40,645 nt of DNA. Source: Bacillota bacterium. GTDB lineage: Bacteria; Bacillota; Bacilli; Tumebacillales; Effusibacillaceae. The notes under the pieces were generated by a model that had not been told where the DNA came from, did not search any database, and worked only from the letters and a program-made list of their open reading frames with translations. The stretch covers positions 1 through 40,645 of the forward strand of contig JAGVBM010000338.1 in NCBI GenBank assembly GCA_020059765.1, in the 5' to 3' direction. Position numbers and translations under genes: made by a program. Positions 16,693 through 31,400 of the stretch are shown here, piece by piece (within the stretch, counting starts at the first letter, position 1; every line of letters begins with the position of its first letter).

Positions 16693-16932
16693 ATGTACAA
16701 GTGCGCGTTGTGCACACACGAATTACAAAAGCTTACTCGTGGACCTTTTGAGGCCGAACACTTCTATGCTCTTCCGGCGCTAGAAGTCGATGACCAGGGA
16801 AGCTACTACAGATCTCAGGAAAGAAGTCTGTATTTGACCGCCTGGATGTGTCCCAACTGTAAAAACGTTCAATTCTTTGCTGCAAAAGCCACAGGAGAAA
16901 TTCAAGAAGGGCGTATTCGTTACAGCAAGTGA
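16693..16932 (+). CDS. Antisense moron, Zn-ribbon protein (79 aa)
   Basis: GGGGGTG RBS; CALC...CPNC; own promoter-like leader. Confidence 0.75.
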   Translation: MYKCALCTHELQKLTRGPFEAEHFYALPALEVDDQGSYYRSQERSLYLTAWMCPNCKNVQFFAAKATGEIQEGRIRYSK

Positions 16933-17288
16933 TACCCATCAACCTGTGCAGCTATTGATTCCGAATCGACCAAACATTGTCCGCAAACTGGGCAAAACTT
17001 GAACAATGGGCTGTACTCTTTATTGCAAGATACACAGCTTTTGATAGCCGTCGTTGCAGCGGCGGCTTTTTCTTCCCTCAGCGAAATTTCCAATTGGTTC
17101 ATCTCACCCAGGAGCCGCTTTTCGACCTCTTTCGCGAACGCTGATTCAAAAGAGTTTTTCGAACGCATATACAACTCGTAGACAGCGTCTCTGGCAGCCC
17201 CGTAAGTGAACGAACTTTCTTTGATCTCTTCGAGCTTCCGCTGAACCAACTGATCGAAATGATTTTTTAATTCCTCCAATCCCTTCAC
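16920..17288 (-). CDS. Hypothetical protein with C-terminal Zn-ribbon
   Basis: CVSC...FKFCPVCG; convergent and overlapping with 16693..16932; exact start uncertain. Confidence 0.7.
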   Translation of the reverse strand: MKGLEELKNHFDQLVQRKLEEIKESSFTYGAARDAVYELYMRSKNSFESAFAKEVEKRLLGEMNQLEISLREEKAAAATTAIKSCVSCNKEYSPLFKFCPVCGQCLVDSESIAAQVDGYHLL

Positions 17289-17291
17289 CCC

Positions 17292-17310
17292 CTACGCCGT
17301 GCTGGCGGAT
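17292..17310. repeat. Direct repeat copy 1 (duplicated cro 3' end)
   Basis: CTACGCCGTGCTGGCGGAT, identical to 17738..17756. Confidence 0.85.
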
Positions 17311-17382
17311 TGATTAGCAGGCAATCCTCCCTTGGTGTCTAATCTTATAATTAGGGCACCGTGTCATAAGGAGAGATGCCGT

Positions 17383-17535
17383 TTGTCAAAAGAAGTGATT
17401 TGTGCACAATGCGGTAAAACTTTCAGCCCTCCTGAAATGCTTTACCCGAGCGAAAATTTATTCCCAAGCAGTACCCTGTATCCAGTAAGCGAAGAATCAA
17501 AAACGACCTGCCCTGACTGTTTGAACCAAAAGTAG
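17383..17535 (+). CDS. 50-aa Zn-ribbon protein displaying an LYPSxx repeat (tail-hub mimic)
   Basis: TTG start, AAGGAGA RBS, TATAAT at 17346; CAQC...LYPSENLFPSSTLYP...CPDC. Confidence 0.75.
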   Translation: MSKEVICAQCGKTFSPPEMLYPSENLFPSSTLYPVSEESKTTCPDCLNQK

Positions 17536-17562
17536 GAATCACCCGACACGGTGCCCTACTTG

Positions 17563-17721
17563 TTACTTAACTTGCAGTTCCGCTATTGCCCGGTACAGCT
17601 CCGCGATTGCGTCTTCAATCTTTTGCAAGCGTTCCGGTGTAACAGGCGTTCCCTCTCGGATGACTTCTCCGTTTTCTCCAACAATGCGATCTTGCCATTG
17701 TGTCGGCTCATAGGTTTTCAC
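17563..17721 (-). CDS. 52-aa stand-alone tail-fibre N-terminal-like protein (not in ORF track)
   Basis: GTG start, GAGGGGTG RBS; MKTYEPTQWQDRIVGENGEVIREGTPVTPERLQKIEDAIAELYRAIAELQVK. Confidence 0.75.
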   Translation of the reverse strand: MKTYEPTQWQDRIVGENGEVIREGTPVTPERLQKIEDAIAELYRAIAELQVK

Positions 17722-17737
17722 GTTTATTCACCCCTCT

Positions 17738-17983
17738 CTACGCCGTGCTGGCGGATGTTGCGGATTGATCATTATGTCCTGATACATCACAATTGGTTTC
17801 AAAAAAAATCGTCCAGCTACAACCAACAGCAGATGCGATCTTTTTTGCGGTCTTGACGCTTACAGAATTTCCGTTTTCAGCTTTGGTAAGAGTAGATCTC
17901 TCCACACCCGCCCTCTCGGCTAATTGTTCTTGGGTTAAATCCATCTCATTCCTAAGATCAATCAGCCATTGTCTCCGCTTCAT
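17738..17983 (-). CDS. Cro-like XRE HTH regulator
   Basis: LTQEQLAERAGVERSTLTKAENG; first gene of the leftward operon, divergent from the repressor. Confidence 0.88.
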   Translation of the reverse strand: MKRRQWLIDLRNEMDLTQEQLAERAGVERSTLTKAENGNSVSVKTAKKIASAVGCSWTIFFETNCDVSGHNDQSATSASTA

Positions 17984-18149: not shown

Positions 18150-18503
18150 GTGAGTTTGGGGTCGAGGTTAAAAGAATACCGCCGAATAAAAAAGGTGACT
18201 CAGGAACAATTATCGAATGACCTGAAAATTAACAGATCAACCTACGCCAAATACGAAACAAATGAAAATGAGCCTGATCTCGATACAATACAGAAACTTG
18301 CTGACTATTTTAGTGTTTCCATTAATGATTTGGTGGGAAAAAAACCAGAGAGTAACGTCTATGAGCTGTCCAAACAAAAAACTGAATTCATCATCAGAGA
18401 GATTGTGAAAAAGTACAACTTGGATCTAACAGAGGAAGGAATCAAGGAGAAGCTCGAAGCGATCATAAAGCTAGTCGTCGATGATTATAAGAGAAATAAT
18501 TAG
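18150..18503 (+). CDS. CI/ImmR-like XRE repressor without a peptidase domain
   Basis: TQEQLSNDLKINRSTYAKYETNENEPD...LADYFSVS; 117 aa; TATAAT at 18119. Confidence 0.88.
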   Translation: MSLGSRLKEYRRIKKVTQEQLSNDLKINRSTYAKYETNENEPDLDTIQKLADYFSVSINDLVGKKPESNVYELSKQKTEFIIREIVKKYNLDLTEEGIKEKLEAIIKLVVDDYKRNN

Positions 18504-18587
18504 TTCGCGGAGTTGATCGGGGTTCAAGTTTGATAAGCATTCGGATGTCTCCATGATTTCACTGATTTTTGCCGAACATTCTGTCAT
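18471..18587 (-). CDS. 38-aa riboswitch-controlled peptide, convergent on the repressor (not in ORF track)
   Basis: AAAGGAGG RBS; MTECSAKISEIMETSECLSNLNPDQLRELIISLIIIDD. Confidence 0.55.
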   Translation of the reverse strand: MTECSAKISEIMETSECLSNLNPDQLRELIISLIIIDD

Positions 18588-18602: not shown

Positions 18603-18690
18603 TTTGGCAGTTGGCTGGCCTGTCCGAACTGGAGTTAGCCCCTTTAACTTTGCGTCCCTGCCTTTCGGCAGGTTTGCCTTTTGGTAAGTT
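18603..18690 (-). ncRNA. c-di-GMP-I (GEMM) riboswitch
   Basis: Minus strand AAAAGGCAAACCTGCCGAAAGGCAGGGACGCAAAGTTAAAGGGGCTAA...CAGCCAACTGCC: GCAAA bulge, GAAA tetraloop, GACGCAAAG junction, CTAA receptor. Confidence 0.88.
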
Positions 18691-20495: not shown

Positions 20496-20500
20496 AACGG

Positions 20501-20551
20501 TGGAGCGGGTGATGGGAATCGAACCCACGCCGCCAGCTTGGGAAGCTGGTG
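20501..20551 (-). other. attP core: 3' part of tRNA-Gly(CCC)
   Basis: Minus strand CCAGC-TTCCCAA-GCTGG anticodon arm, GGTTCGATTCC T-arm, acceptor strand ending CCA; D-arm and 5' acceptor strand absent. Confidence 0.88.
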
Positions 20552-21919: not shown

Positions 21920-22681
21920 CTAGTTTGTCTGGATCTTACGTATAACTGGGTGTTCCCAGTAGTTCTCTGCGACCTTCGGGATACCGCTCCAAGAGAAGTT
22001 TTCCCAAACGATCTTTCCTCTCGTTTCAGACCCAAACTCCATCTTCATCACGTTATCATTTGAAGTCTTTCCATACGCATCTTGCAGTGGTAGCACGATA
22101 TTAAAAGCGACGGTCTTAATTTCTTTGTTGTCATTCAAAGCCTTTAACACATCGTAAGCATCCATCCACATACCTTGCTTGATCATTTTCTCGCTGAAAT
22201 TGTCTTGAGCGAACACACGGATGAGCAGGAACCCATTGTCCTTATTGAAGTTCAATTCCAGAATGCTGTCTTTTTTGTCATAAGAGTTAGTTTCACCGAA
22301 AGCCTTATGCACAGCCGTCTTTGCAGCATTTTCCGGTTTTTTGGCTTCGACATCCGTTTTTGCTTTCGCTTCTGCTTCAGCCTTCGCTTTTGCCTCAGCT
22401 TCCGCTTGGGCTTTTGCTTCTTCCTCAGCTTTCTTCTTATCCTGTTCCGCCTTCACAGCTGTGTCTACCGTTTGTATTTGATTTGTTTCAGGGGCAGTTG
22501 TTTGACTTGTTTTTTCTGGATCAGAAAAGATTACAAAAAGTGCGATGACAGCCCATGCCGAGACAAGTGCTCGCAATCCTTTTGATTTTGTTCGTTTCCA
22601 CAGCAGGAAAATACCTATGTACGGAGCGAAGATGCAAAGTAAAATGATGAACCATTTCCTTTGATGCCATTTTTCTTCCAT
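21920..22681 (-). CDS. Membrane-anchored surface protein (post-lysin moron)
   Basis: Two N-terminal TM segments, AEAEAKAK linker, globular C-terminal domain; own promoter and terminator. Confidence 0.8.
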   Translation of the reverse strand: MEEKWHQRKWFIILLCIFAPYIGIFLLWKRTKSKGLRALVSAWAVIALFVIFSDPEKTSQTTAPETNQIQTVDTAVKAEQDKKKAEEEAKAQAEAEAKAKAEAEAKAKTDVEAKKPENAAKTAVHKAFGETNSYDKKDSILELNFNKDNGFLLIRVFAQDNFSEKMIKQGMWMDAYDVLKALNDNKEIKTVAFNIVLPLQDAYGKTSNDNVMKMEFGSETRGKIVWENFSWSGIPKVAENYWEHPVIRKIQTN

Positions 22682-25077: not shown

Positions 25078-26214
25078 TTATATAAAGGCTGTATAGTTAA
25101 AAACAACACCGTTTTCGTTCGATGTATCAGCAAATGAGCCGCTATCGCCAACGATGAAACCATTCGTCGTTATGTCGACCAGATAATATGGAGACCCACC
25201 ACCAGACTTATATCCAGTTACACTATTTCCATCTCCAATAATCCTTATAGTGTGGTCAGCTGCGTTGCCCACAAGTCCGATATAGGTTACAGGTGTTGTT
25301 CCTCCAGATACAATAACCATTTTAGGGGTCGCCCCAATATTTATCGTTCGACTAGCTGTCCCATCACCTGTATATGATCCCGTGATTTTGGTGACGGCGG
25401 AACTTGCAAGCGCAAAAGCGCTCGCATGTTGGCCGTCTAGCATGTCGGCATCCAACCCGCTTCCGGATCCGTCGTTTCCGGCGTGCCATATGGTACTCGT
25501 GCCTACTCTAGCTACTGCTCCTGATATTTCCGGCATAAACTGAAAATTACCGCTATTGTCGATACCGAAGTATCCTTGTCTATCTCCTTGGCCATCAAGA
25601 AACTCAACATAGTTCCATCCACCTTCTTTGGTTCCTGCCGTTGACCCTGCATCTGTTTGCTTGAGCCTGAGGATGCCGTCCGTTGAGCTTTCGATAGTAA
25701 GACCACCTGTCATCGTATCCCCAGCCCTATTGACGGGTCTAATTCCCGCCAGCATCAATATCGCCGATACCAATCCGGGCAGAAGATTCGCCTGCCGTTG
25801 CGCAACGTCTGTCACGGCCAAAATATTCCCACTTGCATCTGTCGTAACTTGATAGAGAGCAATATAATTCGCCTGTGCGCTGTGAGCAGTTCCCCATGAG
25901 AGCGTCCCGTCAGGATTGAGATCGAGATAATACGTAGTCGACGCGACCGATGTCGTAAAAGTTGTGCTCGCCGGATTTCGTTTACGAAGTGTATTGTCTG
26001 TTTGTTTCGGATAAGCCGTACCGCCCGTAAAATCAAGTTGATTGGCGATCGATCCATTTTTGACTGCCGTACAACCCGAGAGGACAAACGGGTCAAACAA
26101 GCCTACTGGATACGATTGCACAGATTCGTCGTATTGAGTTTCCATCCTGTTTAGTTCTGCTGCTGAAATACCTGGTGCCGCTCCTTCGTTCCAGGTTGTT
26201 TTCGTATATGGCAT
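25078..26214 (-). CDS. Tail fibre / receptor-binding protein
   Basis: N-terminal YTKTTW...LNRME, VNRAGDTMTG knuckle, WHAGNDGSGSGLDADMLDG, GSYTGDG C-terminal domain. Confidence 0.85.
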   Translation of the reverse strand: MPYTKTTWNEGAAPGISAAELNRMETQYDESVQSYPVGLFDPFVLSGCTAVKNGSIANQLDFTGGTAYPKQTDNTLRKRNPASTTFTTSVASTTYYLDLNPDGTLSWGTAHSAQANYIALYQVTTDASGNILAVTDVAQRQANLLPGLVSAILMLAGIRPVNRAGDTMTGGLTIESSTDGILRLKQTDAGSTAGTKEGGWNYVEFLDGQGDRQGYFGIDNSGNFQFMPEISGAVARVGTSTIWHAGNDGSGSGLDADMLDGQHASAFALASSAVTKITGSYTGDGTASRTINIGATPKMVIVSGGTTPVTYIGLVGNAADHTIRIIGDGNSVTGYKSGGGSPYYLVDITTNGFIVGDSGSFADTSNENGVVFNYTAFI

Positions 26215-26218
26215 TTGA

Positions 26219-26689
26219 TCACACCCTTCCTATCGTGTCAGTTCGGACGATATTGATCGACTCCAAGTTCGTCTTATCCTTCGTCCACAATACCCTCGAA
26301 ATGAGAATACCTGTGTTCGGCGAACCAGTTGCCCCAGCCCCCGCAAAAATCCCAATCTCGCGAATACTGATATTCGCCTCTGTCGGGGCTATATAGCAGG
26401 TACTTTCCAATACTCCGGTTCCTTGCACGGCCTGTTTCGTAAACGCCTTTCGAAACGCTTCTGCGCCGAGCTGCGTATTCGTGTTTACAAGTGGCAGGAT
26501 TGTTCCGTTGTCCGTGCCTAGAGCCAGGTATTTGAGTGTGAGGTCTGTCACCGTGCCGTCGAGCGCATCGCGGATCAGGTTGAGCGCGCCGTCTGTTATC
26601 AGGTTTTTGATCTTGTGAACTTCTGTCCCGTTTGGCCCAAAGACATGGATTTCATATTCGCCCAACCAGCCAAAGATATTATCAACCAC
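26219..26689 (-). CDS. Tail-tip / baseplate adaptor protein
   Basis: KNLITDG, YLALGT, LGAEAFRK, EAN..IREIGIF motifs; GTG start with AAGGAG RBS. Confidence 0.75.
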   Translation of the reverse strand: MVDNIFGWLGEYEIHVFGPNGTEVHKIKNLITDGALNLIRDALDGTVTDLTLKYLALGTDNGTILPLVNTNTQLGAEAFRKAFTKQAVQGTGVLESTCYIAPTEANISIREIGIFAGAGATGSPNTGILISRVLWTKDKTNLESINIVRTDTIGRV

Positions 26690-26702: not shown

Positions 26703-28115
26703 TCAGCAGGGATAAAGCGTAGAACTCGGATAAAGAGTAGCGGACGGAACCGGGCACGCATACACCGTCTGTGTCTGATTTTCCGTCCATCCCCACGATT
26801 CGAACTGAGTGACAAGCCGGACCAAGATCTCGTTCTCGCGAATCACGAATGTCTGACCGGCTTTCACGAGCTTCCGGAAGAAGTTTACCCATCCGCCAAC
26901 CACTTCACCATCCACAGCCTCTACGCTGTAGCGAATGACGTTGCCGGACACATTGTCAATATTCACCCGCTGAATCAGATATTGCCCGGTCAGGCCCCTG
27001 GATGGAAGGTCGATGGTCAAGAGTTGACCTGCTTTCAGACCGCTTTTGAAGGTCGTAAACGTCACCCGCTTGTCGATCTTTCCGTATCGGCGAAGTCGGC
27101 CTTTCGCGTATTCGAGAGCCGCATCTGCATCATCGATCGATGCTTGCTGTTCGACAGCTTCGTAGACCCCTGTTCCGCCCTCCTTGGTCTTGCGGTCTTG
27201 TATCCCGGCGGCATCTTCGGAAACGACGATGATCGGGAAAAAGCCTTTGTATATGATCTCAAATACATCTGTTGAAGTCAGCAACGTACCTGCATCGTCC
27301 TGCTTGATCTCTGTTTTGCCTTTGTTCCAGTAGAAATCCTTGCCACTGTCCAAACCGCCGATTCCTACTGTCTTAGGAACGGTGTTCACTGTGATCGTCG
27401 GCACTTCAGCAATTGGATAAAAGACATTGAACACCCGTTTGTCTCCGTCCCCTTTTTGTCGTTCAGTCTGCGGGTCAGTCACGTCCTGACCAGCTCGGAT
27501 GTATTGCCGGTTGCGGTACTGACTCCGGTCATGCGTGACTTTCAGGTCGCGCGTCGGTTGACTTGTCTCTGTGATCGACCAAGGTGCATCGTTTGTAGTA
27601 CGCTCCAGGAAGTGCAGCACCTTGTTTGCGTCGATATAAAACATGAAGCCTGTGAGCTCCGCAACGTCCTGCAGGGCCTCACTGGCTCGGTCATAGTTGA
27701 ACACGGCTGCCGACACAGTTGGCCCGGTTTGGATTGTACCGGCTGTGACTCCTTCGTCAGCAAGATACTTCGTCAAGAGATCGTTAACGATGAATCCCGC
27801 CGTCTGGTTCCGATACGTTTCCGCGACGATCTTGCGGTCAGCGATCTGATGCCAGTCAACGCACGTGACCGAATATACCAGGTCCGTTCGAGCGATCAGG
27901 TCGGACTCTTCCACCTCGTCGATCGTCCCGCCGAAGATCCGGACACCAGCATCGTCCTCGATGATGATTTCCATGCCTTCCTCCGGTGCGCCGAGACCGG
28001 ATAGATTCATCATCTCGAATGTACACACGCTTCGCTCGTTGATCTGGTCGGTGATCCGCAGGGTTCCGTCTGAAATATCAGCGCCTCGATTTACACCAGC
28101 AATCTTGACGATCAT
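26703..28115 (-). CDS. Tail-tip hub protein ending in PVPSAT-LYPSST-LYP repeats
   Basis: Directly after tape measure; IFGGTID, ALQDVAE..GF.FYID hub-like motifs. Confidence 0.75.
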   Translation of the reverse strand: MIVKIAGVNRGADISDGTLRITDQINERSVCTFEMMNLSGLGAPEEGMEIIIEDDAGVRIFGGTIDEVEESDLIARTDLVYSVTCVDWHQIADRKIVAETYRNQTAGFIVNDLLTKYLADEGVTAGTIQTGPTVSAAVFNYDRASEALQDVAELTGFMFYIDANKVLHFLERTTNDAPWSITETSQPTRDLKVTHDRSQYRNRQYIRAGQDVTDPQTERQKGDGDKRVFNVFYPIAEVPTITVNTVPKTVGIGGLDSGKDFYWNKGKTEIKQDDAGTLLTSTDVFEIIYKGFFPIIVVSEDAAGIQDRKTKEGGTGVYEAVEQQASIDDADAALEYAKGRLRRYGKIDKRVTFTTFKSGLKAGQLLTIDLPSRGLTGQYLIQRVNIDNVSGNVIRYSVEAVDGEVVGGWVNFFRKLVKAGQTFVIRENEILVRLVTQFESWGWTENQTQTVYACPVPSATLYPSSTLYPC

Positions 28116-31094: not shown

Positions 31095-31400
31095 GTGACT
31101 AGTGGGTTAGCTGCAAAACAACGCCAGCCAAGACGCCACAGCTTAGCTATTGCGGCAAGTATATTTGCTCTTGGAGGAGTAATTTTTACGCTTACTCTTC
31201 TGGGCGCTGTAATTGGAATCCCTATGCTGATTATTAGTGGAATTATTTTTTTGATCCGCTCTCGAATTAAGATGAATTCTATCGAATGCCCATCTTGCAA
31301 AACACCGAATAAGATCGAATTATCCGTCCAGTATTTTAATTGCGAACAGTGCCTAAAAACAGTACGAAAAGAACAAGGGGAATGGGTGGCTGCTGGTTAA
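31095..31400 (+). CDS. Antisense moron: 2-TM membrane protein with C-terminal Zn-ribbon
   Basis: AAGGAG RBS, GTG start; LLGAVIGIPM hairpin; CPSC...CEQC; AT-rich. Confidence 0.8.
   Translation: MTSGLAAKQRQPRRHSLAIAASIFALGGVIFTLTLLGAVIGIPMLIISGIIFLIRSRIKMNSIECPSCKTPNKIELSVQYFNCEQCLKTVRKEQGEWVAAG

Follow-up and report, generated by a model that had tools for sequence, protein, structure and literature searches.

The window analysed here, 40,645 nucleotides in length, is an entire contig (C113) of a 2.7-Mb genome and contains a temperate siphophage with an integrase, cI, cro, an antirepressor, a tape-measure protein, a baseplate hub, a tail fibre and lysis genes, as well as a tRNA-like attachment core at 20500-20549 that is a 90% match to a host tRNA. 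Next to cro lie two small open reading frames on opposite strands, A and B (Table 1), boxed by an exact 19-bp direct repeat that coincides with the bounds (17284..17769) given to this cassette in the first-pass annotation. Within the cassette, A and its ribosome-binding site (RBS) lie between the arms of an exact 14-bp inverted repeat; these arms are paired in the predicted fold of the A transcript (z -3.6), which gives a long-range stem with a possible role in processing or translation control. The inverted repeat was also considered as an inversion site and rejected, as no second site beyond chance was present in the window or in the genome, and Rfam gave no match within the cassette. In related phages, the content of the post-cro slot varies and often includes opposite-strand genes, some of them with CxxC pairs.

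Table 1. Features of the cassette after cro and of the immunity and tail genes to which it is compared
Feature	Position	Strand	Remarks
Left copy of the 19-bp direct repeat (cro 3' end)	17292..17310		RBS follows on the - strand
Left arm of the exact 14-bp inverted repeat	17352..17365	+	Directly before the RBS of A
ORF A, 50 aa, candidate decoy of the tail-tip loop	17383..17535	+	CxxC, three L[YF]P, CxxC
Right arm of the exact 14-bp inverted repeat	17545..17558	-	Separates the stop codons of A and B
ORF B, 52 aa, tail-fibre N-terminal module alone, candidate antidote	17563..17721	-	First gene after cro
Right copy of the 19-bp direct repeat	17738..17756		Last cro codons
cro-like HTH gene, head of the early lytic operon	17738..17983	-	Promoter-like site 18067-18039, 11/12 matches
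cI-like repressor	18150..18503	+	
Tail fibre with short-type N-terminal module	25078..26214	-	
Small adaptor-like gene, hub-fibre interval	26219..26689	-	phrog_1780, phrog_4176; PF12571 weak, E 0.019
Baseplate hub; two LYP repeats and a degenerate one at the C-terminus	26703..28115	-	phrog_196, E 1.9e-7

The tail of this phage has both an LYP-ended hub and the adaptor-like gene, relatives of which stand ahead of the fibre module in loci lacking LYP. The genome also contains another prophage fragment (C252), which encodes a hub that is 89% identical over the last 65 residues; the region concerned (G000:C252:7998-10699), in which this closely related hub and an adaptor are combined with a different fibre body, is a natural target or partner for A. 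Two further genes of the window are moron candidates with weak library matches, namely a membrane and CxxC gene at 31095-31400 (+), on the strand opposite to the surrounding tail operon, and a membrane-anchored gene at 21920-22681 (-) behind the endolysin. Behind the same cro-end repeat lies a second convergent pair, 16693-16932 (+) and 16920-17288 (-), which encodes a 79-aa CxxC protein and a 122-aa zinc-ribbon protein and includes a + strand terminator at 17046-17067; this pair is replaced in the second phage described below and is another candidate moron/antidote pair. Between cI and the next HTH gene, a c-di-GMP-I riboswitch aptamer was detected at 18603-18688 (-) with 76 bits against a cut-off of 35, followed downstream by GGAGG and a 38-aa ORF (18471-18587, -) that overlaps the 3' end of cI in antisense. 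Control of the lysis-lysogeny switch by c-di-GMP through this aptamer is possible; the 38-aa ORF has no Pfam match, and the literature search returned nothing specific on a c-di-GMP riboswitch at such a switch.

The description of A as a CxxC...CxxC reading frame with LYP-type repeats, as given in the first-pass annotation, is confirmed. The ORF has a TTG start with AAGGAG 9 nt upstream, CxxC motifs at residues 7-10 and 43-46, and L[YF]P at residues 20, 26 and 32, thus displaying the three repeats at a 6-residue period that define the triple-LYP tail-tip loop class; the chance expectation for a triple L[YF]P at this spacing is 3.5e-6 per window, for a motif chosen post hoc. A is not embedded in a tail-tip protein preceding a module gene, but is a free-standing, CxxC-flanked protein encoded outside the tail operon. 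No tail protein with CxxC pairs flanking an LYP triple was found in the loci retrieved with CxxC-plus-LYP DNA patterns or in the genomes with weak hits, which argues that A is not a simple tail fragment. As regards the four cysteines, Pfam zinc-ribbon matches were below cut-off, the structure model had a pLDDT of 65 and a pTM of 0.32, and 4/4 Cys are kept in the second allele; given the low confidence of the model, the zinc staple of A is putative.

It had also been claimed that A copies the C-terminus of the phage's own hub. The heptapeptide PSSTLYP is indeed common to both proteins, with 6 of 7 codons differing, but derivation from this particular hub is not borne out, since the A loop resembles it in 10/15 residues and the loops of other phages in up to 12/15, and the replacement S30N in the second allele abolishes the PSSTLYP identity. 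On a tail-loop matrix of 28 loops, A scored 41.7 bits (leave-one-out range 29.5-49.3; own hub 29.4), a score that is partly circular because the loops were chosen by a pattern taken from the fixed positions of A. As A scores as a family loop and lies closer to some other loops than to that of its own hub, it is likely to mimic the three-repeat family loop and not specifically the hub of this phage. Of the promoter and RBS that A was said to possess, the RBS was recovered and the promoter was not: the only promoter sign is a TATAAT at 17346-17351 (+) with no -35 match, the promoter scan lists none upstream of A, and the hexamer is broken in the second phage, where one base is missing and one is changed. 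A function of this TATAAT as the promoter of A is doubtful.

The cassette occurs in a second phage at approximately 92% DNA identity, with its flanks replaced. A contig of run X1 spans 17288-17701 and differs from the window in 32 letters and two indels, both outside the ORFs, and in its left-hand DNA the neighbouring genes are replaced. In A, 5 silent and 3 replacement changes (Q9K, S30N and K40Q) correspond to a pN/pS of 0.15 (P about 0.01, with 29/32 changes listed), and all Cys and all motif L, Y, F and P residues are kept. The corresponding ratio for B is 0.57 (P 0.14), which is not significant alone, while A and B together give P 0.006; the changes of B in X1 are those of P0002, a full 52-aa protein with the first 21 residues unchanged. 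Where covered, the starts, stops and RBS of both ORFs are intact in the second allele, the RBS of A and both arms of the inverted repeat are unchanged, and the left copy of the 19-bp repeat is unchanged at the listed positions, with one base inserted at its edge. The antisense mirror frame of A carries the same silent-site signal, but contains a stop. The pattern of changes supports purifying selection on A in the second phage, with both selection and co-retention resting on two known alleles, a thin basis.

B had been missed by the ORF track and was proposed as the first gene after cro. It is a real ORF with a GTG start behind a purine-rich RBS. The tail-fibre N-terminal module to which it belongs follows the pattern Y-x4-W ... 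TP ... N.[MI]E and has no Pfam family; B scored 38.5 bits on a module profile built without B or its homologue, matched phrog_9010 with E 1.8e-6, and was modelled as an arm, a beta-hairpin and a helix (residues 29-51) with a pLDDT of 90.5. Membership of the fibre-start family, as first proposed, is thereby upheld, but the suggested match to the phage's own fibre is not, since pairwise alignment of B with that fibre start is not significant (p 0.245) and the two are linked only through the family profile. B has no fibre body, ending at 52 aa, and lies after cro, not in the tail operon. Module matches were present in 14/400 genomes of the class, and all 19 places found share the hairpin of B and lie in open frames of 167-621 aa, which makes the isolation and position of B unusual. 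Module-only proteins do exist elsewhere: a profile search yielded 67 short module proteins, many on short contigs, and in the two contexts examined (L346 and L127) they stand among late or structural-looking genes.

Within the family, B belongs to a hairpin subtype, scoring 52.7 bits against 26.2 for the short type, although the hairpin-subtype sequences were found with B. In 8/8 extended loci of this subtype a baseplate J or sheath gene is present, and in 0/8 an LYP pair, from which the subtype of B is judged to originate from contractile tails that do not have LYP. A search of the genome (95.5% complete, 423 contigs) gave no contractile-tail module, the only module matches being B, the phage's own fibre and the fibre of C252.

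The two motifs mimicked in the cassette travel together in tails. The triple L-Y/F-P DNA pattern occurred in about 1100 IMG/VR stretches, 120 of which were listed and 80 of these with flanks; 62/80 flanked loci, among the matches listed, have a frame of at least 150 aa, and most triples are located within long proteins, or at their ends, and these proteins are tail-tip-like by context. A module gene was found on the same strand within 2.5 kb in 45/62 long-frame loci and in 0/18 short-frame loci, a comparison that is partly circular because the module profile was partly seeded from the same loci, which are redundant. Selection on the module gave the same picture: among 80 short-type loci, 69 of them with at least 4 kb upstream, a same-strand LYP pair was present in 47/69 and an opposite-strand pair in none, while among distinct modules the same-strand pair was found in 15/23, with a strict pattern that misses some. 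The LYP loop and the fibre start module are thus genomically coupled in tails. The module also stands behind an adaptor-like gene of ~100-120 aa without LYP, both in contractile tails and in four close siphophage tape-measure relatives (L277-L280), and LYP is therefore not the only or the proven partner of the module. No solved structure covering either the LYP motif or the module was found by sequence or by fold. From sequence we infer docking of the LYP loop onto the fibre module, a step that these data support.

LYP-type repeats were also encountered in other settings. Small proteins that consist for the most part of four to five repeats are encoded directly before a module-bearing fibre gene (L210:2902-3126 and L191:2806-3063), and P0015 contains many; these repeat-rich proteins are possible branching adaptors. 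In L088:2171-2656 and L072, LYP triples occur in a non-hub protein upstream of head-connector-like genes, which suggests that the loop is also used outside the tail tip.

Searches for relatives of A were largely negative. A word-index search gave no homologue, five IMG/VR matches were attributable to chance, and comparison with GenBank phages gave weak matches only (best E 0.1). Of the 50 matches among 1.84 billion representatives, 48 had a C2H2 pattern and the shortest was 191 aa, and they were discarded; the 86 loci retrieved with CxxC-plus-LYP DNA patterns included no in-frame case. No A-like protein was found among 400 genomes of the class or 400 of the phylum, where 20 and 13 genomes, respectively, had weak matches, and in the Atlas A matched unnamed clusters alone (score 0.91-0.92). 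Pattern scans for B in viral, metagenome and genome data returned none or chance matches among the matches listed, and a weak match on contig C1 proved to be out of frame in a housekeeping gene. The best structure match among viral models, to a minor tail protein of a Gordonia phage (E 0.44), is a lead only. Neither A nor B matched a defence family in PADLOC 2023, Pfam or PHROGs.

Since the motifs that A and B resemble are coupled in tails, the cassette is most simply read as a decoy with its antidote. The layout shared with tested defences, the coupling of the motifs in tails and the purifying selection on A all favour an assembly-blocking defence with a built-in antidote, for which a probability of roughly 0.4 is estimated. 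A would probably be made in the lysogen and would use its zinc-stapled loop of three LYP repeats to occupy the N-terminal docking module on the new fibres of superinfecting LYP-type siphophages. On induction, B, likely to be made first after cro, would sequester A and leave the fibres of its own phage free to attach; antisense damping of A by convergent lytic transcription may contribute. Trimerization of the module, docking of LYP onto it, binding of A to fibres and to B, and protection are all steps that we infer. A more specific version, in which defence and antidote are cut from the two halves of a single undescribed tail plug-and-socket, such that the LYP plug strips rival siphophages of their fibres and a socket-only protein of a foreign tail type disarms the plug on induction, is put forward slightly more tentatively. 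Against the decoy and antidote stand the origin of B in LYP-free contractile tails, the occurrence of the module without LYP and the broken promoter sign of A. An antidote shaped like a fibre start could, moreover, also block the phage's own hub; it is a matter of speculation that such self-harm is avoided by the foreign-type socket, together with the reduced LYP tail of the phage's own hub and its adaptor.

The arrangement of the cassette, in which a small gene opposite to the lytic operon adjoins a partner in that operon, has counterparts in characterized prophage defences, of which the following particulars are taken from the accessible parts of the respective reports. TERi of Listeria prophages blocks virion assembly by targeting the terminase; the 65-aa TerI is encoded on the opposite strand in the early lytic module after cro, and two proteins, anti-TerI1 and 2, are encoded in the lytic operon, one of which binds TerI (10.1101/2025.02.27.640495). 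The post-cro slot, the small opposite-strand gene and the partner in the lytic operon are common to TERi and A/B, whereas terI overlaps its antidote gene and its target is the terminase, and the word 'mimic' is absent from the main text on TERi. In Tai/Ati, tail assembly is blocked, escape mutations map to tail-tip proteins and an adjacent counter-defence gene lies in a non-contiguous operon (PMC11364771). Tai differs from the present cassette in being enterobacterial, in its late-operon site, in the size of the protein (tagged TaiEcA, 26 kDa) and in giving tailless particles, and in the text consulted it is not described as a copy of a tail motif (PMC11364771). In Tab/anti-Tab of Pseudomonas phage JBD26, the system originally named as the parallel, a constitutive opposite-strand blocker with its own promoter is bound by a lytic antidote (PMC10884400). 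Tab differs in that it sits between the terminase genes and targets the tape-measure protein (PMC10884400), and for this reason, while the parallel in layout is sound, Tai and TERi are closer than Tab. The likeness of A/B to all three is one of layout.

For the docking step itself, the monocin proteins FtbK and FtbN may provide a model of how a three-repeat loop docks: according to the part of the report available (PMC11830787), a loop of the tail tip reaches into the upper end of a fibre rod that is a helical trimer. This is an analogy only, with no sequence or fold match of either protein to A or B. Nothing further on loop insertion into a fibre top was present in the accessible portion of PMC12917162. 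Neither a dual-mimic system nor an LYP docking motif was found in the literature searched, which was mostly open-access and covered at title and abstract depth. Within that scope, the first-pass view that the dual-mimic form had no prior description stands: the decoy/antidote logic is known from TERi, Tai and Tab, and the dual-mimic form is apparently new.

Among the alternatives, the cassette may be neutral or unrelated cargo of a moron hotspot and play no part at the tail interface; it would then consist either of captured tail-gene fragments or of a small zinc-ribbon moron whose loop is LYP-like and whose neighbour is an unrelated fragment. The variability of the post-cro slot in relatives, with its opposite-strand genes and occasional CxxC pairs, is in keeping with this, as are the duplication that boxes the cassette, the rarity of the latter and the lack of conservation of the promoter. 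Cargo of this kind is considered unlikely in view of the silent-site bias and kept motif residues of A, the preservation of starts, stops and RBS, where covered, in the two alleles, and the lack of a tail protein with a CxxC-flanked LYP triple among those retrieved; it is also improbable that two motifs coupled in tails should meet by chance in a single cassette.

A little less probable still are two separate weapons with no binding between A and B, A being a decoy against LYP-type siphophages that is silenced in lysis by the cro transcript and B a fibre-less dominant-negative protein that would poison fibre trimers or adaptor sockets in phages with contractile tails, whether co-resident or co-infecting. 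The nearest kin of B are fibres of contractile tails without LYP, B shows no significant similarity to the start of the fibre of its own phage, and in Tai the defence protein is lowered by lytic transcription, as stated in the accessible text (PMC11364771), all of which such a division of labour would accommodate. The lytic neighbour is nevertheless the antidote in Tai, Tab and TERi, as far as their reports could be consulted, and no contractile-tail module was found in the genome at the completeness given above. Self-directed assembly control, with A and B acting on the phage's own tail tip as a fibre-start chaperone or a fibre-number tuner, would suit a phage with an LYP-ended hub and a module-bearing fibre, and small module-only and LYP-only proteins do exist as late genes elsewhere, but A is encoded on the lysogenic strand, at a distance of ~7.5 kb from the fibre gene and not within the late operon, and no such mini-gene was seen beside related hubs and fibres (C252, G490, G696 and G510) in the tail regions viewed. 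This is the least credible of the explanations.

Assembly-blocking defences known to date were found by screens and, in the accessible parts of their descriptions, are not presented as copies of their targets. If the decoy and antidote proposed here are real, each would be recognizable from sequence as a mimic of a virion interface, and the target range of the defence, phages with LYP loops, could be predicted in the same way; the LYP loop and the fibre start module would then constitute a widespread and structurally unsolved fibre-docking interface. Regardless of the defence, the two form a common coupled pair for which no Pfam family or solved structure was found, and pinning down the interface between LYP and the module would help to explain how fibres are attached and swapped in these phages.
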